20,281 nt of DNA from Deltaproteobacteria bacterium (GCA_016202395.1 JACQOV010000026.1:1-20281), one strand, 5' to 3'; positions 6,377 to 15,644 are shown, counted from the stretch's first letter. Translations and numbers: made by a program. Notes: a model not told the origin generated them from the letters alone.

Positions 6377-7746
6377 GGAATTCCTCCTCCTATGGCCTTA
6401 TAGAAAGCAGCGGTTGCAATTTGATATTGAGAACCGGCGGCTAATGCCGCTACCTCGGCCTCATCCAAGGTAAGTTGCGAATCGAGGACATCGGCATTCG
6501 ACACGATCCCCTCTTTAAAACTGGCCTCCGCAATCTTAAGGGCCTCTTCGGCCACCTGAACCTCTTCTTCACGAGCCTCGACCAATGCTAAACCTTCCTC
6601 AATCCGATCGAGCGATTCTCGAATCTCTAACCAAACTCGATCCTTCAGTTGAAGCTCTCGAAGATCGATCTCGGCCATCTCGGAGCGGAGCGAGTCGACC
6701 TTTCCTGAGACTCCAAATCCATCGAATAGCGGAAACTCGATGGCAGCCCCCACCGACCAATTGTCTTCAAACTTCTGCTCAAAGTCGGGGGCCGGATACT
6801 GATAGCCCCAGTGAGCCCGTCCCAAAAGCGAGGGGCGATTCTTCGCTTTCGTCGCGTGAACCGATTGACGTAGAACCTGGCTCTGGGCTTCCAGGCGATG
6901 AAACTCAGGACGTTCCACCAAAGATTGTTGCAAGACCGCCTCGAAACTAGGAAGCTCATGGCGCTGCTTTAAATCCCCGGAAAGCTCGACAGTCTCTTCC
7001 AAAGGGAGCCCCACCCTCTCTTGAAATCGAAGAAGGGCCCGCTTGTAAGCATGCTCCGCCTCGATCACCTGGGGCCTAAAAGAACGGGTGTGACTCTGCG
7101 TTCGGAGCCATTCAAACCGCGAGATCAGCCCCTGTTGGTAACGACTCTCCGAAATCCGTTCGTGATCTTGAGCCCTCTCGTACCCTTTTTGCTTGACCTG
7201 CCAGAGCTCTTTGGCTTGAAGGGTTTGGTAAAAAATCTCGGAAACTTGGTAGACCACCTCCGACTGAACACGATGAAGCTCGGCCACCTCCGCTTGTCGT
7301 TCAAACTCTCGAGCGCGATAGGTGGAGGCGAGCCTGCCCCAGCTAAAAAGAACCTGCTCGAGATCTAGAGAGGTGTCGATGTTGTCGGCATTGCCCAACT
7401 GGATCGTCTGCGTCCCAGCAGCTCCCACAGGGATCTGAGCCGAGGGAACATTCCCCACCCGCTCGTAGCCCGCATTGAGTGTGAGTTGAGGGAAAAAACT
7501 CGACCGACTCTCTGTCTTAAGCCCTTCCACTTTTCCAACCCGCTCCTCTTGCGCCAGAACCTCACGATTCTGTTTCAACGCCATCTCCACCGCTTGATCC
7601 AACGTCAAAACCTCCTGGGCATAACCAACACCCTGCAGCATTACACCCAGTAGAGGTAGCAAAACCATGATCCCCCTCACCTTCATCCTCTCCCCTTTGG
7701 GGAGAGGAAAGAGGTGAGGGGGTAAAAATTCCGTCCTTCTTTTCAT
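6373..7746 (-). CDS. TolC-family outer-membrane efflux protein
   Basis: LTLDQAVEMAL, FFPQLTL, FPLFDG OEP motifs; GAGG RBS 7 nt upstream of ATG 7746. Confidence 0.9.
   Translation of the reverse strand: MKRRTEFLPPHLFPLPKGERMKVRGIMVLLPLLGVMLQGVGYAQEVLTLDQAVEMALKQNREVLAQEERVGKVEGLKTESRSSFFPQLTLNAGYERVGNVPSAQIPVGAAGTQTIQLGNADNIDTSLDLEQVLFSWGRLASTYRAREFERQAEVAELHRVQSEVVYQVSEIFYQTLQAKELWQVKQKGYERAQDHERISESRYQQGLISRFEWLRTQSHTRSFRPQVIEAEHAYKRALLRFQERVGLPLEETVELSGDLKQRHELPSFEAVLQQSLVERPEFHRLEAQSQVLRQSVHATKAKNRPSLLGRAHWGYQYPAPDFEQKFEDNWSVGAAIEFPLFDGFGVSGKVDSLRSEMAEIDLRELQLKDRVWLEIRESLDRIEEGLALVEAREEEVQVAEEALKIAEASFKEGIVSNADVLDSQLTLDEAEVAALAAGSQYQIATAAFYKAIGGGIP
7672..7722. repeat. 51-bp CCCCTCACC...GGTGAGGGG palindromic element inside the TolC 5' coding region
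   Basis: Near-perfect hairpin; core CCTCTCCCCTTTGGGGAGAGG identical to the element at 14701-14751. Confidence 0.8.
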
Positions 7747-9078: not shown

Positions 9079-9162
9079 AATTTGGGGACACGATGCTTAA
9101 TCCAGAAAAGTTTTCATAGATAAGTATCGTGTCCCCCGAACTACCCGAACTACACCGAACTA
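9079..9162. mobile_element. Hairpin element 1 (inverted + direct copy of the array motif) with 3' tandem duplications
   Basis: GGGGACACGATGCTTA-ATCCAGAAAAGTTTTCATAGA-TAAGTATCGTGTCCCCCGAACT; CCGAACTA at 9136, 9145 and 9155. Confidence 0.75.
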
Positions 9163-9163
9163 T

Positions 9164-9433
9164 TTAGGCAGCACGTTTTTTGAAAACGGCCTCCTCTAAT
9201 CGAGCAATTCTAGAGACCAATCCCCTCTTCTGACCCAATAAATAATCCTTGAGTATTTGATTAAGGAGCGCCTGATACTTACTCCCAGAATCAATAGCCA
9301 GACTCCGAAGAATGTCCAACACTTCCTTATCGAGATAGGTAGTGATACGAACCTTTGCAGATTTCAGCTCTTCTAAGCTTATAGAAGGACCTCGTACTTT
9401 TTCCATTTTGCTAGGATCAGGTATTTTCTTCAT
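9164..9433 (-). CDS. brnA: BrnA-family antitoxin (RHH/CopG-like)
   Basis: KVRITTYLD...KYQALLNQILKDY; start ATG 9433 with GGAGG at 9441-9445; overlaps the toxin 3' end. Confidence 0.8.
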   Translation of the reverse strand: MKKIPDPSKMEKVRGPSISLEELKSAKVRITTYLDKEVLDILRSLAIDSGSKYQALLNQILKDYLLGQKRGLVSRIARLEEAVFKKRAA

Positions 9434-9695
9434 AATATTTCCTCCATTTGCGCCATTCCGCAGCGCCAAAAATACGAACCGTCTCTCCCCGTAAAGTATA
9501 CCGTACAGTGATGATCTTACCTTTTACGGTTTTACCAACAGCATAGTGTCGATCCTCTTCCGAGGAATGTTTTGGATCTTCCAAATGAATAACCTTTGGA
9601 TCTGCAAAAACTTCCATGGCTTCTTCAAAATTACAGCTATGCTTCGAGATATTTCTAAGTTCTTTCTCAAAATCCCACTCAAAAGTGTACGTCAC
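9417..9695 (-). CDS. brnT: BrnT-family toxin (DUF497)
   Basis: FEWD..K...N..KH...FEEA.EVF.DP, HSSEEDR...VG, VRIFGA. Confidence 0.9.
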   Translation of the reverse strand: MTYTFEWDFEKELRNISKHSCNFEEAMEVFADPKVIHLEDPKHSSEEDRHYAVGKTVKGKIITVRYTLRGETVRIFGAAEWRKWRKYYEENT

Positions 9696-9701
9696 GCTCT
9701 A

Positions 9702-9730
9702 CTTATATGCTATTATATGTATTATGTCAA
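9702..9730 (-). promoter_or_regulatory. Sigma-70 promoter of brnT-brnA, probably leaderless
   Basis: TTGACA (9730-9725)-N17-TATAAG (9707-9702), then 6 nt to the GTG start; no SD. Confidence 0.7.
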
Positions 9731-9768
9731 GCGGTTGTACTGGACGCCAAAAAGGGTGGGGTCATATA

Positions 9769-9833
9769 AATTCTGGGGACACGATGCTTAATCCAGAAAA
9801 GTTTTCATGGATAAGCATCGTGTCTCCCGAGCT
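9769..9833. mobile_element. Hairpin element 2 (near-identical to element 1)
   Basis: GGGGACACGATGCTTAATCCAGAAAAGTTTTCATGGATAAGCATCGTGTCTCCCGAGCT. Confidence 0.75.
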
Positions 9834-9848
9834 TGAAAGGACTCCGTT

Positions 9849-10319
9849 ATGAAATCTGACCATTACATTTTTGATGTCTCGATTGAAAATTGCGGCGCCT
9901 ATGATGTGAAGGGAAAAGTCCTGCGCAAGATCCAGATTGACGGGAACAAGAGTCTTTATAACTTTGCACAAGTAATCACAGAGACGTTCGGATTTTATTT
10001 TGACCATTGTTTTGGTTTCTACGACAATTTTAAAAGATATCATGATTCCAGGAAGGCCTATGAACTTTTCCAAGATATCGGAGAGGAGCCGCTTTCGCCA
10101 ACAACCCAAGGAGTCAAGAAAACAAAAATATCACAGGCGTTTAAGACCCTCGGCGAGAAAATGCTTTTTCTCTTTGATTACGGCGACGGCTGGCGTTTTG
10201 TTGTGGAATTGAAAGAGATCAAAAACTCCGAAAAACGGAATTTAAAACCGGTGATATTAGAGGCGATCGGCAAAGCGCCGGAACAGTACCCACGGTACAA
10301 AGAGGAATGGGATGTGTAG
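9849..10319 (+). CDS. Plasmid pRiA4b ORF-3 / TnpR-like family protein
   Basis: RKIQIDG..SL......I...FGF..DH...F and FLFDYGDGWRF...L, G.AP.QY motifs; AAGGA RBS. Confidence 0.8.
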   Translation: MKSDHYIFDVSIENCGAYDVKGKVLRKIQIDGNKSLYNFAQVITETFGFYFDHCFGFYDNFKRYHDSRKAYELFQDIGEEPLSPTTQGVKKTKISQAFKTLGEKMLFLFDYGDGWRFVVELKEIKNSEKRNLKPVILEAIGKAPEQYPRYKEEWDV

Positions 10320-10327
10320 AAGAACTG

Positions 10328-10460
10328 GGGGCCAGGTTCAAGTATTAAGTTTTTAATCTATTTCCCGTTCGCCCTGAGCCCTTCGATAAACTCAGGACGG
10401 GCCTAGTCGAAGGGGGTGAACGGGGGTTTTTCAGCAGAATCAATACTTGAACCTGACCCC
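10328..10460. mobile_element. MITE-like element with 19-bp terminal inverted repeats containing a nested palindrome
   Basis: GGGGCCAGGTTCAAGTATT (10328-10346) / AATACTTGAACCTGACCCC (10442-10460), 18/19 match; nested CCCGTTCGCCC...GGGTGAACGGG at 10364-10424. Confidence 0.7.
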
Positions 10461-10510
10461 AAGCGTTTCAGTGAAAAAACTCCCGAATCCCAAAGGGATG
10501 GTTTAGCCAT

Positions 10511-10547
10511 TCAGTATCGTGTCCCCAGAACTTATGCAGAACTTATG
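10511..10547 (+). repeat. Array motif copy 3 with 11-bp tandem duplication
   Basis: TCAGTATCGTGTCCCCAGAACT; CAGAACTTATG twice (10526-10547). Confidence 0.8.
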
Positions 10548-10549
10548 CT

Positions 10550-10720
10550 TACACTAAGATGCTCAAGAGGCAAATAACCATCCGTCTGGAATCAGAGACT
10601 ATTGCTTATTTTAAAAAATTAGCTAAACGCTCCGAAATTCCTTATCAAAGCTTGATCAACATGTACCTTAAGGAATGTGTTCAATCCCACAAGAAACCTG
10701 TTTTTAAATGGGCCGCCTAA
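10550..10720 (+). pseudogene. 5'-truncated BrnA-family antitoxin (not in ORF track; 53 aa from ATG 10559)
   Basis: Translated by hand: YTKMLKRQITIRLESETIAYFKKLAKRSEIPYQSLINMYLKECVQSHKKPVFKWAA*. Lacks the usual N-terminal EYDF...NPY segment, an SD and a toxin partner. Confidence 0.7.
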
Positions 10721-10734
10721 AATATGTTTCCAAT

Positions 10735-10756
10735 TAAGCATCGTGTCCATCGAACT
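10735..10756 (+). repeat. Array motif copy 4
   Basis: TAAGCATCGTGTCCATCGAACT. Confidence 0.8.
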
Positions 10757-10766
10757 TTTTACAACA

Positions 10767-11168
10767 CTAAAGCCCTTCTTCACATGAAATCCAATCTTCA
10801 TAAACCTTTCCGTGTTTAGGGGAAACAAAAGCCATGTTACCTATCATACTCACGTTAGTCTTACGACCAGGTTTAACTATGGCACACTGATGCATGAGCC
10901 CAAAAGTCATATAAAAATCACCGTCTGAACCAGAACTTTTCCAAACTGTTATCCCAGTGTCATGGTTTCCAATTCCATCAATACTAAAAAACAAATCTTT
11001 ACCAACTTTGTAATTACAAGATAAGACTTGTGACTCCGACTCTCCGCTCTTGCAAGATTTCCCTTTTAGAGTCTCCTTATAGGTTATGTTGTCCTTCTCT
11101 GCCATCACATCAAGACTAAAAAGAAGTGTGAAGATAGCAATAAAAAATATCCGCGGCTTGCTTTTCAT
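10767..11168 (-). CDS. Secreted hypothetical protein with four Cys
   Basis: Start ATG 11168 with GGAGG RBS; signal peptide MKSKPRIFFIAIFTLLFSLDVMA; AT-rich. Confidence 0.75.
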   Translation of the reverse strand: MKSKPRIFFIAIFTLLFSLDVMAEKDNITYKETLKGKSCKSGESESQVLSCNYKVGKDLFFSIDGIGNHDTGITVWKSSGSDGDFYMTFGLMHQCAIVKPGRKTNVSMIGNMAFVSPKHGKVYEDWISCEEGL

Positions 11169-11284
11169 AAGTGGCCTCCATGACAAATTTAAAAGATAAA
11201 CCCCCAGCATCGGAAGAATGATAGCAAATTGGAGATAATAAAGACACTCAAGTCCCTATTTCCTCCCCCACTTATTTTCCCAAT

Positions 11285-11306
11285 TAAGTATCGTCCCCCC
11301 CGAACT
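11285..11306 (+). repeat. Array motif copy 5
   Basis: TAAGTATCGTCCCCCCCGAACT. Confidence 0.75.
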
Positions 11307-11325
11307 TGAGGGGAAATCCCCTCTT

Positions 11326-11497
11326 GTCATTGCGAGGAGCCCCGCCTTGGCGGGGCGACGAAACAATCTCCTCCCCCTTGAAACAAGGGGCTACAATCCA
11401 TTTCTCCCCCTTTGATAAAGGGGGAGTTAGAGGGGGTTACTCTTCCATTCATGGTAAGTGGCATTCCGTTCATGGTGAGCTCCGTCGAACCATGAAC
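11326..11497. repeat. Mosaic of at least three small palindromic element families
   Basis: GTCATTGCGAGG...AAACAATCTC (11326-11370); CCCCTT/AAGGGG hairpins (about 11374-11439); GTTCATGGT...ACCATGAAC (11468-11497). Confidence 0.7.
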
Positions 11498-11671
11498 AAA
11501 GGGAACGGCCTCAGACAAGAGTTGTGAAGTTGCTGAAAACTAAAAAACCATTACCTGACACCATTCCTGACCCCCATTTCCGCAAGAAAAACAGTCGCTG
11601 TCCCTATTTTCTAAACCAATGCTGTGGAACAAATCATTAAGTTCGGCGGACACAACAGAGCATGTAACCGC

Positions 11672-11711
11672 TTGCTTTATTATTAACGATATTGTATAAA
11701 ATCGTTAATAA
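11672..11711 (+). promoter_or_regulatory. Fic gene promoter overlapped by an 11-bp inverted-repeat operator
   Basis: TTGCTT-N17-TATAAA; TTATTAACGAT-N10-ATCGTTAATAA (11680-11711); extra half-site TTATTAACG at 11721-11729. Confidence 0.65.
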
Positions 11712-11739
11712 GACAATCCCTTATTAACGGGTTTACGAC

Positions 11740-12876
11740 ATGGCTACAATTCATGGGAAAAAGATCAAATGCGCGGAAGGCTATCAGGCTTATGTTCCTG
11801 ATCCATTGCCTCCCCCGATAGAGTGGAATGAAAGGCTCGCCAGACATCTCTCTGATGCAGATCGCAAGATCGGTCAGTTGGCCACCATCGGTTCGGCCTT
11901 GCCAAACCCTCATTTATTGATCCGTCCTTTTGTCCGTCGCGAGGCCGTGTTGTCCAGCCGTATCGAAGGCACTCAAACCTCACTGGCAGAGTTATTCGCG
12001 GACGAAGCGGGTGTGGAAACGGGACGTGACCGCTCGGATCTCAAGGAAGTCGAGAACTATGTCAAAGCCTTGGAATATGGAATCAAGCGCCTCAAGACAT
12101 TACCGATGTCACTCCGTCTGATGTGTGAAATTCATGAGCATCTGATGAAAGGGGTGCGAGGCAACATAGCGACTCCGGGTGAATTCAGAAGATCTCAAAA
12201 TTGGATCGGGGTCGCTGGCTGCACCTTGCAAAACGCAACTTACATTCCACCACCGCCATATTTGTTGATGGAGTGTTTAGGAACCTTGGAAAAATTCTTT
12301 CATGAATCGACCCTGCCGCCACTTGTCACCATCGGCCTGATCCATCAGCAATTCGAGGCCATCCACCCATTCCTAGACGGGAACGGTCGTGTAGGACGTC
12401 TACTTATTATCCTTTACCTCGTGGAACACGGTATCCTCCCTTCTCCGATTATGTATCTCAGCGCTTTTTTTGAGGCCACCCGAGACGAATACTATGCCCG
12501 ACTTAATGCCGTCAATGAAAACGGAGATTGGAAGGGCTGGGTTGAATACTTCTTGAATGGCGTGACCCGTCAGGCAGAAGACGCCCTGAGTCGCATCCAG
12601 CAGATGCAGGAAACCGTTACAAAATGGAAACAACTCTTCACCCACAAGGCGGCTGACAAGAACAGTCTCTTGTTGATTGATGACTGCATGACAAACCCCT
12701 TCATGACCGTCGGTGGTATGGCTAAAAAACATAAAATCTCTTTCCCAACGGTGCAACGTGCCGTGGACAAGCTCGAAAAGGCAGGCGTTTTGAAACAGAC
12801 CAGCGATGCAAAACGAAACCGAATCTATTGTGCCCGTCGCATTTTAGATATTTTGGATCAACCTGCTAAGATTTAG
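11740..12876 (+). CDS. Fic-family protein (N-terminal inhibitory motif, C-terminal wHTH)
   Basis: Canonical HPFLDGNGRVGR; SSRIEG matches the (S/T)xxxE(G/N) inhibitory helix. Confidence 0.92.
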   Translation: MATIHGKKIKCAEGYQAYVPDPLPPPIEWNERLARHLSDADRKIGQLATIGSALPNPHLLIRPFVRREAVLSSRIEGTQTSLAELFADEAGVETGRDRSDLKEVENYVKALEYGIKRLKTLPMSLRLMCEIHEHLMKGVRGNIATPGEFRRSQNWIGVAGCTLQNATYIPPPPYLLMECLGTLEKFFHESTLPPLVTIGLIHQQFEAIHPFLDGNGRVGRLLIILYLVEHGILPSPIMYLSAFFEATRDEYYARLNAVNENGDWKGWVEYFLNGVTRQAEDALSRIQQMQETVTKWKQLFTHKAADKNSLLLIDDCMTNPFMTVGGMAKKHKISFPTVQRAVDKLEKAGVLKQTSDAKRNRIYCARRILDILDQPAKI

Positions 12877-12889
12877 CCGAGAAGAAAAT

Positions 12890-13261
12890 TTCTCGGCTCA
12901 AATCCGATCGCTGCGCACATTTCTCGGGATGACACAAGCACAACTCGCAAAACGAGCATCACAAAATCCCCGGCTCATTCGGCGGCTGGAATCTGGGGAG
13001 GTAGACCCTCGCCTATCGACTCTTATGAAAACAGCGGAAGGATTGGAGTGCAAACTTGTTGTTCGATTTGTGCCAAAACAACCGGTTGTAAAATTATTAC
13101 GGCAACGCGCAGAAAAAAAGGCCGAACAGATCGTTGAGTTGTCGAAAGGGACCGCTGCAATGGAAGAACAAGAACCTAAAGACGTCATTGTTCAATTTCA
13201 AAAAACCGCGATTGCTGAAGAATTGATCGACAAAAAACGGTCTCTGCTGTGGGAAGACTGA
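12890..13261 (+). pseudogene. Mobile mystery protein A-like XRE-HTH protein, apparently 5'-truncated
   Basis: Frame reads FSAQIRSLRTFLGMTQAQLAKR...LECKLVVRFVP...MEEQ...LWED. The first HTH helix lies upstream of ATG 12929 and there is no ATG/GTG/TTG back to the in-frame stop at 12845. Confidence 0.7.
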
Positions 13262-13784
13262 CTTTGAAAAGTAAAGCTACCAACGACGGGAAAACACCTT
13301 TAGCCGATTCTTCGGGATTACTTGTCGATGTTTATGCTCGAGACCAACTCAACGCATTTGAGTTTGAAAATGTCAATAAAGCGATCATGAAATATCTGAC
13401 CCGTCGCCCCACAGACAAAAGGGCATCCTTTACCTACTCGTGGTTTTTACAAGTACATCAAGAGATGTTTGGAGAGGTAACGATTACCACTTTTGGACGA
13501 AATCTGAAATGAACCATGAAGAACTCTCGGCTAGATTGCATCATCGATTGGTGTGGATTCACCCTTTTGAAAATGGAAATGGTCGATGGGCTCGACTCAT
13601 CATGAATATTCATCTTAAAAAGTATAACCTGCCATGAGTGGAGTGGCCGGAAAAGAGCCTTCTGGATCTTTCCTGCATTCGAGAGAAATATCTAAAAGCG
13701 CTGCGCGATGCAGACCACCAAAACCTTCAACCTTTGATTGCCCTGCACCAATCGCTACAAAAGCAGAGCAAACAGCCCTCTTAA
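13249..13784 (+). pseudogene. Mobile mystery protein B-like Fic protein, disrupted
   Basis: GKTPL...LNAFEFEN...HQEMFGEV, frame change with apparent internal deletion near 13480, HHRLVWIHPFENGNGRWAR, in-frame TGA at 13635-13637, then VEWP...REKYLKALRDAD to TAA 13784. Confidence 0.8.
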
Positions 13785-13820
13785 AAACTTCCCGCAACCC
13801 CGAAGGGATAGCCTGGCCAT

Positions 13821-13842
13821 GAAGCATCGTGTCCCCCGAACT
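13821..13842 (+). repeat. Array motif copy 6
   Basis: GAAGCATCGTGTCCCCCGAACT; the upstream ~38 bp also aligns with the sequence upstream of copy 3. Confidence 0.8.
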
Positions 13843-13951
13843 CCCATTTTCATGTACCCGCTATCGAGCTCAAGTACTACTCAACACGCGACTTGACCCC
13901 ATGACCTGCTATGAAATCTTTTCTAAATTGAGTATTCTGTTCCCGGCATTT

Positions 13952-14257
13952 ATGAAAAAGGGATTCAGAGAAATATTCCTGGCTAAACCGCCGCCCGCCA
14001 AGAAGGGTGAGATTAATTATTCCCTTATCGATCGGTTCACGTTGGTCCATTTTATGATCGGTTTTGGTTATGACTTGCTGGGACTTAGTTTGGGGCTGGT
14101 TGTTTTGCTTGCGCTTGTCTGGGAACTTCTCGAAAATCCCTTGAAAGCCCATCTTCCTTTTATGTTTCCTCATGGCACAGCAGATACTTTACAAAACTCG
14201 GTGGGGGACACCCTTGCCGTTATCTTAGGTTGGATAATTAGCCGTTACGTTATTTAA
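13952..14257 (+). CDS. Small membrane protein (DUF2585-like motif pattern)
   Basis: D.FT.VH...G, WELLEN, DT.QNSVGD with hydrophobic segments; start uncertain (ATG 13952 or 13901). Confidence 0.6.
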   Translation: MKKGFREIFLAKPPPAKKGEINYSLIDRFTLVHFMIGFGYDLLGLSLGLVVLLALVWELLENPLKAHLPFMFPHGTADTLQNSVGDTLAVILGWIISRYVI

Positions 14258-14315
14258 CAACAACCCTTCCGCAGGTGATCGGCCTCTAAAACTCTGGGAT
14301 AAATTCATTCAAAAC

Positions 14316-14410
14316 GTCATCCCCGCGAAAGCGGGGATCCGGCAACATTCATAAGACTGGGTCCCCGCTTTCGCGGGGATGACGTGGATTCCTGTTTTTA
14401 CGGGAATGAC
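14316..14410. repeat. Second GTCATCCCCG REP/dRS3-like palindrome cluster
   Basis: Units at 14316-14342, 14357-14383 and 14385-14410; same family as 1939-2052. Confidence 0.85.
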
Positions 14411-14516
14411 GGATGGAGCGGCAGAATGACGTGACCCTGACTGGACGGATACATCCATTTGACATAAAGAAAGGGGCGTGATACCAACGAGCCTTCCACA
14501 AGGGAGGGCCAATCCA

Positions 14517-15644
14517 ATGGAGAGGAATCGGATTTTGTCTTGGGTTTTGGGGTTCGGGGTTTGGATCTTCGCTCCTCATTCCCTGATCGCTGAAACTCAG
14601 TTTTTCCATAGCGATCATCTGGGATCTTCAACACTCGTAACCCATGCCGATGGCCAGGTCGTTCAAAGCGGGACATACTCCCCTTTTGGAGAGCCCTTAA
14701 CCCCTCACCCTTCTCCCTCTCCCCTTTGGGGAGAGGGTTGGGGTGAGGGGGCTACCGCTTACCTTTACACCGGCCAAGAGCTCGACGCGGAATCTGCCCT
14801 CTACGATTATGGCGCCCGATCTTATGATGCCGCTTTATCTCGTTTTGTCAGCGCCGATCCGGTTCTGGGAAATCCCCCTTATAGTTACGTCCAAAACAAT
14901 CCGATCCAGAGAATCGATCCTAATGGGAAAGACGATGAAGATTTTCAAGAGTTGCTGCGCCGATTCGAGAGTTCTTCCAGGCGACTTGGAGAAAAAATAG
15001 CCAGACTGGCATCAGAGGCCTCTAGACTGGCTGCAGAGCGGTATGCAGCCGAGTGGGATTCCCTACCCCAAGAACAAAGGGGAAATATATTGGAGAATCT
15101 AACGCATCGAGATCCTGCAACAAACGGTTATCGGATCCAAATCACCGTGGAAAGCATGATGGCCAAAAGTCTTGCTAAAGAACTCAAGGCAAAAATAGAC
15201 GAAGATTCAGCGCTGATCGAGAGACTAGATGCCCGTCAACTCATGGCTTATACAGAGCTCACCAAAGGCCTCCCCGAAAGTAGGACCCTTCATTTTAGTA
15301 GTGTGGATGGCGAAAAATTTTCGGGGCCTTTGGCATTTCCCGTAAATCTCGATCCCTCGCTGGGTCAAAATACGGGCTATGGGACACCGGAGGATAGCGC
15401 CTTGAAAAAGATAGGGTTACCAGGCCAGAAACTCGATTATCGACTCAAGCCTAATCCTTGGGTTTCTCCCAATATGGAAGAGCTTCGACAATCGCTGGGC
15501 ACGAATCCAGGTTATGGATGGAATCCCGATTGGGGAAGTTTGGCAGGCCCCCTGTTCGTAGTAGGGGTCACAGGAGCCGTAGTCGGCTGCGCCCTCTTCT
15601 CTGAGGTCTGTGGCGCAGCAGCAACCTTGGCCACCGTTCCGTAG
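14517..15644 (+). CDS. Short RHS repeat-associated core protein with signal-peptide-like N-terminus and unknown C-terminal extension
   Basis: HSDHLGS, YSPFGE, YTGQELD, YDYGARSYD...RFVSADP, YSYVQNNPIQRIDPNG; ATG 14517 with GGGAGGG RBS. Confidence 0.85.
   Translation: MERNRILSWVLGFGVWIFAPHSLIAETQFFHSDHLGSSTLVTHADGQVVQSGTYSPFGEPLTPHPSPSPLWGEGWGEGATAYLYTGQELDAESALYDYGARSYDAALSRFVSADPVLGNPPYSYVQNNPIQRIDPNGKDDEDFQELLRRFESSSRRLGEKIARLASEASRLAAERYAAEWDSLPQEQRGNILENLTHRDPATNGYRIQITVESMMAKSLAKELKAKIDEDSALIERLDARQLMAYTELTKGLPESRTLHFSSVDGEKFSGPLAFPVNLDPSLGQNTGYGTPEDSALKKIGLPGQKLDYRLKPNPWVSPNMEELRQSLGTNPGYGWNPDWGSLAGPLFVVGVTGAVVGCALFSEVCGAAATLATVP
14701..14751. repeat. CCCCTCACC...GGTGAGGGG palindromic element inserted in frame in the RHS core
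   Basis: Hairpin translated as PHPSPSPLWGEGWGEG between YSPFGE and YLYTGQE. Confidence 0.8.

Follow-up and report, generated by a model that had tools for sequence, protein, structure and literature searches.

Clustered repeats in an AT-rich islet of a Deltaproteobacteria genome, read as terminal inverted repeats of Y1 HUH (TIRYT) elements

We analyzed a 20,281-nt stretch of DNA (the window; GCA_016202395.1 JACQOV010000026.1:1-20281) from a Deltaproteobacteria bacterium, which is contig C106 of a metagenome-assembled genome (MAG; here G000; 1.9 Mb in 108 contigs; 89% complete). Between positions 9079 and 14257, six co-oriented copies of a motif of about 22 nt separate small genes, and a preliminary description of this DNA had proposed an integron-like array of gene cassettes, in which an enzyme encoded elsewhere inserts DNA at the GAACT end of the motif. 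Judged from its sequence, the motif is instead the terminal inverted repeat (TIR) of elements of the TIRYT or "TIRtron" type. TIRYTs are TIR-associated tyrosine transposases, i.e., RAYT-like Y1 HUH enzymes of TnpA-Y1 subclass 2.1. Our whole reading, which we consider probable, is that the motif is the TIR of a TIRYT element, that pairs of inverted arms (dimers) are miniature elements, and that copies piled up locally by insertion and decay. On this reading, the motifs are places where elements landed and decayed rather than sites at which a recombinase captures cassettes.

A pattern search of the window placed the motif on the plus strand at 9121, 9812, 10511, 10735, 11285, and 13821 with 0 to 2 mismatches, as the preliminary description had it; 100 dinucleotide shuffles gave no match. 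Its further statement that the window holds no other copy did not stand, as there are inverted partner arms, namely, a minus-strand copy at 9769-9790 and a second left arm at 9084-9099. With these missed arms taken into account, copies 1 and 2 turn out to be right arms, each completing a 60-nt hairpin dimer; the two dimers bracket the brnA/brnT genes and are 93% identical to each other, with arms of 16 nt. Dimer 1 (9079-9142) consists of the left arm at 9084-9099 (GGGGACACGATGCTTA), a 21-nt loop, and the right arm at 9121-9142, which includes the outer box CGAACT; dimer 2 (9767-9833) has its left arm at 9775-9790 and its right arm at 9812-9833. Folded as single-stranded DNA, they reached -16.4 kcal/mol (z = -6.5) and -21.1 kcal/mol (z = -8.5), respectively. 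The other four copies are solitary right arms on the plus strand, two of them contained in longer units (10471-10532 and 13781-13842, the latter with the motif copy at 13821) and two with 2 mismatches each (10735-10756 and 11285-11306). These form no hairpin (z = +0.2 to +0.8 for three of them; for 11265-11310, z = -2.5 at only -2.2 kcal/mol).

All of these copies fall within 4.8 kb of AT-rich DNA, an islet that carries toxin-antitoxin and Fic modules and has pduO on one side and an Rhs fragment on the other. The G+C content of the islet is 0.37 to 0.46 (versus 0.51 to 0.55 in the flanks), in agreement with the AT richness described earlier. Also borne out was the observation that genes abut the 3' side of the motif: the brnA stop codon (9164-9166) lies 2 nt past the last GAACT, the ATG of the PRiA4_ORF3-like gene (9849) is 15 nt from the 9812 copy, a 53-aa antitoxin open reading frame (ORF) follows copy 3, and the stop codon of the minus-strand ORF at 10767-11210 is 10 nt from copy 4 (10735). 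Inverted arms enclose larger segments as well. The 13781-13842 unit and the left arm of dimer 1 bracket the whole islet (29-nt inverted repeat; 79%), and PRiA4_ORF3 has the left arm of dimer 2 on one side and the 10511 solitary arm on the other (27-nt inverted repeat; 89%). The segments between motifs contain several genes in mixed orientation, one including a frameshifted Fic gene and another an orphan half-length antitoxin; they are not one-ORF cassettes.

The assignment to TIRYT elements was based on the arm and on the genes that it flanks elsewhere. An arm (about 22 nt) comprises an outer box, NRAAYT, followed by GGGGACACGATRCTTA and then usually ATT. All good arms carry GGGGACAC, which fits the TIR consensus in the text of two published descriptions, i.e., GGGGWSAS for the repeats flanking TIRYT genes, with copies occurring singly, as dimers, or in groups (PMC3733652), and GGGG[AT][CG]A[CG] for subclass 2.1 (PMC6006769). 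The latter text equates TIRtron/TIRYT with TnpA-Y1 subclass 2.1, characterized by NHVH, Y[IV]ELNP, and HTH tails. Among 19 Y1_Tnp loci in five other genomes, 3 loci in three genomes were flanked by inverted GGGGACACAATAC[TC]TA, and the flanking arms at these loci (L030, L028, and L043) had 1 or 2 mismatches in 16. At L030, the arms are at 1424 and 2121; the left one precedes the ATG for a 222-aa protein by 19 nt, and the right one overlaps the transposase stop codon. This protein has the motifs TNHVHLIV (NHVH) and YVEYNPV (YVEYNP) and scored above the cut-off for PF01797, with REP_Tyr_transpos as its best NCBIfam match (72.8 bits, below the 80-bit cut-off). The final ~130 nt of this gene and the right arm are present again, in tandem, at L030 2148-2285. 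With Y1 genes flanked by inverted copies in three other genomes, the earlier suggestion that TGTCCCC/TGACCCC termini flank Y1 HUH genes holds, in line with the GGGGWSAS consensus in the published text. The GGGGWSAS start, the flanking of Y1 genes in other genomes, the HUH and tyrosine motifs, and the dispersed copies all agree with membership in the TIRYT/TIRtron repeat family.

Other families were compared as well. Repetitive extragenic palindromic (REP) sequences did not match, given that a solitary arm is not a palindrome and that no GT[AG]G foot stands next to this class. Tn3-family ends (GGGG...TAAG) were considered and set aside, since neither length nor orientation fits. No Rfam family matched the dimers, and a full-text search, which did not extend to the figures and supplements in which papers list TIRs, found no match in print for the 16-mers or the arm GGGGACACGATACTTA.

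The source assembly has two Y1_Tnp genes of its own, on C28 and C57, both flanked by perfect 25- to 29-nt GGGGTCAG... inverted repeats. The protein of the C28 gene (L001) scored 83.5 bits against the 80-bit cut-off of REP_Tyr_transpos and has a DnaA_C-like tail. The ~220-aa proteins of the L030 group, which are 38 to 55% identical to one another, differ from the 323-aa proteins of the source genome. A tblastn search with 21 ORFs from Y1 loci found nothing significant in the window, and in the 89%-complete assembly it found just the two GGGGTCAG-class genes and a small divergent Y1-like ORF on C66; a cognate gene flanked by the TIR class of the window was not found there. The C66 ORF (about 6690-7130) has DHAH and Y..EDP motifs and no recognizable flanking repeats.

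The outer part of the motif, where the preliminary description placed the insertion of DNA (GAACT), was compared among arms. Of 15 dimers from other genomes, 14 have 6-nt outer flanks in which at least 4 positions are complementary between the arms (11 different sequences), and in all 15 the inner 3 nt of the flank pair. Since the outer flanks pair between arms, the arm extends beyond the 16-mer to ~22 to 25 nt. The G000 dimers are less symmetric at the outer box (1 to 3 of 6 positions complementary, except on C3), and nearly all G000 arms read NRAAYT outside CCCC. Right arms flanking TIRYT genes elsewhere have CGAATA, CGATTA, or TTAATT at this place. The pairing of the box and its variability on TIRYT right arms indicate that GAACT is the outer box of the arm rather than an independent target, and the proposed integron-like capture at GAACT is not supported.

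At several tips, the outer box and a few adjoining bases of the arm are duplicated in tandem. Within the window, this occurs at 9134-9161 and 10525-10549. The first of these includes the plus-strand duplications at 9143-9161, where the sequence reads as a CCCGAACTA-like unit in three copies counting the arm's own; the second, also on the plus strand, contains two copies of CAGAACTTATG. Tips are duplicated also on contigs C3 and C4 and, in other genomes from several phyla, at L013, L015, L024, L126, L127, and L129. These duplications may have arisen by slippage at the foot of the hairpin or by insertion at resident tips.

Small accessory genes, toxin-antitoxin cargo, and hairpin-forming sites would also be seen in a true integron remnant, i.e., a cluster of attC sites lacking an integron integrase (CALIN), with the integrase encoded elsewhere. 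Integron attC sites have the consensus RYYYAAC...GTTRRRY. Read against it, both hairpins lack R''/R' boxes in the canonical places, and a second arm and a hairpin, which the attC architecture would require, are missing at four of the six sites. A profile search found no recombinase or transposase in the window, and no integron integrase was found in the 89%-complete assembly (best match to TIGR02249, 74 bits versus a cut-off of 265). The two tyrosine recombinases of G000 are Xer-like, matching XerD over its full length with 326 and 299 bits versus 74 and 68 bits for the integron integrase. The same sequence, moreover, flanks Y1 transposase genes. The earlier statements that the sites are not attC-like and that the window has no recombinase were thus upheld, and we regard a CALIN as hardly credible.

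Comparison among strains was limited by the available relatives. The motif family was absent from 40 candidate relatives, all of them related at the level of the same domain only, and a scan of metagenomes for PduO gave no close relative (best identity, 59%). Four groundwater runs from one study, which probably sampled the source population and yielded short contigs, contained neither joints nor variants of the islet.

Contrary to the idea that the motif is confined to the islet, a scan of G000 found 15 sites on nine contigs, comprising 8 dimers and 7 solitary arms. Besides the two in the window, dimers are present on C3, C4, C19, C27, C32, and C48; the solitary arms are the four in the window, one on C8, and two on C102 near a tRNA 3' end. 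A stretch of 4,764 bases contains six of the 15 sites, compared with 0.04 expected (Poisson P = 4e-12). Local clustering is a habit of TIR families, as the C28 gene illustrates: 9 of the 11 good copies of its TIR family are on C28 itself (a 57-kb contig; 13744-49805), mostly single and abutting stop codons, often as TAG directly followed by GGGGTCAG, in a long run of genes for 370- to 420-aa proteins.

Outside the window, the dimers occupy the gap between MoaA and Rieske protein genes, the gap between carbonic anhydrase and CitMHS transporter genes, the end of rsmH before ftsI, and comEC. Two more are in frame within essential genes, at C32 7042-7087 (L008 3543-3588) and C48 4443-4487 (L009), one in carA and the other in fmt. 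The carA dimer is in the linker between two domains and reads GTRYLFSPENKYRVP; the fmt dimer reads GDTILISNQNKHCVP and is in a loop of the C-terminal domain where the protein is 8 residues longer than the best solved homologue. A MazF gene is located next to the fmt dimer. Housekeeping genes adjoin or contain six of the eight loci outside the window. Scatter of this kind, irrespective of accessory genes, is what the preliminary description had named as contrary to its own proposal, and the dimers show it. The solitary arms on C8 and C102 are among ORFs without family matches. The two C102 arms (155-315; TAAGGTTCGTGTCCCCTGAATT) are in direct orientation, 139 bp apart, just after the tRNA 3' end.

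We searched other genomes with the exact hairpin pattern, GGGGACACGATRCTTA-N(5-30)-TAAGYATCGTGTCCCC, and found it on 15 contigs of 12 MAGs labeled Acidobacteria, Gammaproteobacteria, Elusimicrobia, Omnitrophota, Rhodospirillaceae, and Cytophagales, plus one uncultured bacterium. Five of these MAGs had 11 to 47 arms per genome, versus 0 for the reversed control. The pattern had no match in viral contigs, and blastn of the dimer found no match in plasmids. The hairpin usually lies a few bases past stop codons (often 4 to 36 nt), frequently between convergent ORFs. This position would suit a host function, such as terminators, mRNA-stabilizing elements, or operators, and the text of PMC3733652 reports secondary roles of this kind for REPs. 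However, no T run follows the dimers, the arm spacing varies from 8 to 29 nt, against a dimeric operator, some copies are inside coding sequences, and Rfam gave no match. A host function would also leave the flanking of transposase genes without account, and we consider it very unlikely as the explanation of the motif.

Several of these genomes carry arms around toxin-antitoxin genes. In a gammaproteobacterium (G044), the L126 array reads TIR, PIN and Phd genes, a 240-nt decayed TIRtron, ParE and HTH genes, and TIR, and at L127 of the same genome, Phd and PIN genes are located between inverted arms. Two dimers bracket MazEF and a PIN gene at L020 of an Omnitrophota MAG (G043), and at L015 of a Rhodospirillaceae MAG, a dimer is followed by MazEF. 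Other segments have no such genes: the dimers at L128 bracket ssb, and the segments at L125 encode a DUF308 protein, a PEGA protein, and a protein of no assigned function.

Two G044 loci share a 3.2-kb block that is 100% identical and contains a ParA-like gene, a gene for a 172-aa protein, and a mini-TIRtron, which is composed of the left arm, ~118 nt of the 3' end of the transposase gene, and the right arm. Homology ends 2 nt past the arm tip on one side; the other edge is not defined by an arm, and the loci are in a larger duplicated region. Recombination between repeats would explain the edge as well as transposition. One of the 3.2-kb copies is interrupted by a 1,287-bp insertion sequence (L171 3245-4531) with GGAACTTCTATTTATT-type inverted ends and a 5-bp duplication (TATTG). 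A 99% match between L130 and L147 was set aside, as the block to which it belongs spans at least 12.5 kb and reaches a contig end.

To assess the association with toxin-antitoxin genes, we compared the ORFs nearest to every arm in G044 (21 loci; 57 ORFs) with 60 control ORFs, taken around the most central gaps of 20 arbitrarily placed stretches of 4.2 kb. The 57 arm-flanking ORFs included matches to the Pfam families PIN (3), PhdYeFM (2), HTH_3 (3), AbiEii (2), and dnstrm_HI1420 (1), along with housekeeping families (RNA polymerase, S15, and TruB); for the full set of 60 control ORFs, the tally comprises the best 25 of 76 families. Among ORFs of 160 aa or less, the 34 arm-flanking ones matched PIN (3), PhdYeFM (2), ParE (1), HTH_3 (3), and dnstrm_HI1420 (1), while the 27 control ones matched none of these families, giving instead integrase-core, DDE transposase, and a few others (9/34 versus 0/27; Fisher P = 0.003). 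The six toxin- or antitoxin-specific matches alone gave about 0.02 (one-sided). Six of the matches came from L126 and L127, which were known before the test was designed, and the large duplicated block may count loci twice; the ORF calling was crude, and the tallies were made without the names of the matching members.

This enrichment is part of the case for an HUH-driven cassette platform, in which the TIR tip mimics the element's target and TIRYT stacks TIR-terminated segments, mostly toxin-antitoxin pairs, in co-oriented arrays that can be reshuffled. Its further support comes from the four co-oriented solitary right arms that each close a gene segment, from the tandemly duplicated tips in the window and other phyla, from the similar arrays at L126, L127, and L020, and from the 3.2-kb block ending 2 nt beyond a TIR tip. 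The positions of the islet and of PRiA4_ORF3 between inverted arms also speak for it, as does the ~62-nt unit with a common left edge that three long solitary arms at separate loci share (10471-10532 and 13781-13842 in the window; 13537-13598 on C8). Against it, apart from the limits of the enrichment described above, dimers are mostly beside housekeeping genes, ectopic recombination between repeats gives the same block edge and the block's other edge is not TIR-defined, one window segment has a broken gene, the four runs (short contigs; one study) showed no joints or variants, and neither a mobile circular form nor an empty site was seen. We therefore consider such a platform unlikely, and we think it similarly improbable that TIR tips are landing sites at which a Y1 HUH enzyme stacks small modules, as a single-strand counterpart of the integron in this MAG, the gammaproteobacterium, and Omnitrophota.

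Insertion and decay of TIRYT-type elements remains our preferred reading. On this reading, the dimers are hairpin-forming miniature elements comparable to REPINs that were inserted throughout the genome, whereas the solitary arms, which cannot fold, are most likely what remains, no longer mobile, of elements that decayed or were rearranged. A TIRYT supplied in trans would nick single-stranded DNA at the foot of the hairpin formed by the paired arms, and the dimers would move in an IS200/IS608-like manner, with the acting enzyme encoded outside the 89%-complete assembly. The pile-up may have arisen from repeated insertion and decay in DNA that tolerates insertions, and new copies inserting beside resident tips may have contributed.

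Several observations weigh against this reading. The acting enzyme is an assumption, because the assembly has no Y1 gene with this TIR class, and G041, one of the five other genomes checked, holds dimers although this class was not found around any of its three Y1 genes. The text of the cited TIRYT papers reports no study of transposition mechanism, binding, or cleavage. A single left boundary in three long solitary arms is odd for random decay and suggests that copying involved the ~62-nt unit itself; in addition, the solitary arms of the islet, four in all, are co-oriented. Toxin-antitoxin modules between TIRs in the gammaproteobacterium (L126 and L127) and in Omnitrophota (L020) fit poorly with passive accumulation, which also leaves the tandem duplication of TIR tips in several phyla without account. 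A derivation of the upstream part of the long solitary arms from the 3' end of a TIRYT gene was tried; it showed just faint similarity to real 3' ends and stays a suggestion. That part reads K-K-L-P-N-P-K-G-M-V-stop in the 10471-10532 unit.

The genes of the islet were assigned from ORF calls and a Pfam/NCBIfam-type profile search. The antitoxin gene brnA (9164-9469, minus strand; BrnA_antitoxin, E = 8e-6) and the gene of the ribonuclease toxin brnT (9417-9695, minus strand; BrnT_toxin, E = 1.6e-19) are followed, beyond dimer 2, by the PRiA4_ORF3-like gene (9849-10319, plus strand; E = 1.3e-16). The 53-aa ORF at 10559-10720 (plus strand) is of the BrnA/CopG ribbon-helix-helix type, has no toxin partner, and matches only the C-terminal half of the profiles (BrnA, 34-67 of 68; CopG, 43-78 of 79). 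The ORF at 10767-11210 (minus strand; 147 aa) had no family match. Further along, on the plus strand, are a Fic_N, Fic, and winged-helix protein (11740-12876; E = 4e-28 and 1.6e-19), an HTH_3 (Xre-type) protein (12929-13261; E = 3e-6), and a Fic gene broken into three frames (13249-13827), of which the fragment at 13440-13637 matches Fic (E = 4.9e-11; profile positions 55-93 of 93). The HTH gene and the broken Fic gene up to 13827 could represent a two-gene Fic module in decay, next to the intact Fic_N and Fic gene. A 142-aa ORF without family matches (13829-14257) is upstream of a 388-aa ORF (14478-15644) in which an RHS repeat-associated core domain covers residues 67-150 only and which looks like an orphan Rhs tip.

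Other repeats are present in the same region. A 140-nt hairpin element at 10325-10463, with GGGGYCAGGTTCAAGTATT arms (z = -5.2), represents a second GGGGWSAS TIR class and is related to the TIRs flanking the genome's own Y1 genes; its depth in the four groundwater runs was several-fold to ~20-fold above that of neighboring bins. Two repeat-rich stretches, 11296-11509 and 14292-14505, the latter including a palindrome at 14314-14385 built on CCCCGCGAAAGCGGGG, are common to many other sequences in those metagenomes, with summed contig depths of 183 and 1,850, respectively, versus about 5 to 10 nearby. Rfam searches of these two stretches gave spurious microRNA matches alone, far below threshold.

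Compared with TIRYT/TIRtron elements as described in the texts of Di Nocera 2013 (PMC3733652) and Quentin 2018 (PMC6006769), the motif shares the arm start (GGGGWSAS), the dispersal as singles, dimers, and groups, and the inverted copies flanking a RAYT-like Y1 HUH gene (NHVH and Y..NP) with the right arm over its 3' end. It differs in that the arm is common, unchanged, to MAGs of several phyla and, here, is without a cognate gene in the assembly, and the texts of these two papers do not mention an association with toxin-antitoxin genes or tip duplications. REPIN-RAYT systems (Bertels and Rainey 2011; Bertels et al. 2017) likewise have a single-copy or absent Y1 transposase and short nonautonomous hairpin doublets spread extragenically; however, each classical REP forms a palindrome on its own and has a GT[AG]G foot, according to the text of PMC6006769, whereas here the hairpin needs a pair of arms. 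Integron arrays and CALINs are alike in having small accessory and toxin-antitoxin genes between hairpin-capable repeats with no recombinase nearby; they differ in that here no IntI was found, the attC architecture is missing, orientations are mixed, segments contain several genes, and the repeat belongs to a transposase family. Elements of the IS200/IS605 type and their miniature derivatives share the Y1 HUH enzyme, probably single-stranded DNA, and the lack of target duplication, as well as an internally deleted mini-element in G044, but their ends are separate subterminal hairpins rather than terminal inverted repeats (text of PMC6006769).

The main effect of this analysis is to correct an over-reading, as the motif has a known explanation and we see no good evidence of integron-like function. 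TIRYT elements are common yet almost unstudied, and the present case adds an arm sequence that is unchanged across distant phyla, in-frame dimers that are tolerated in essential genes, a recurrent duplication of the tip, and, in an independent genome, arms near toxin-antitoxin modules more often than arbitrary positions are. If this last association reflects mobilization rather than a shared tolerance of insertion, it would represent a new route by which small defense and addiction modules are shuffled.

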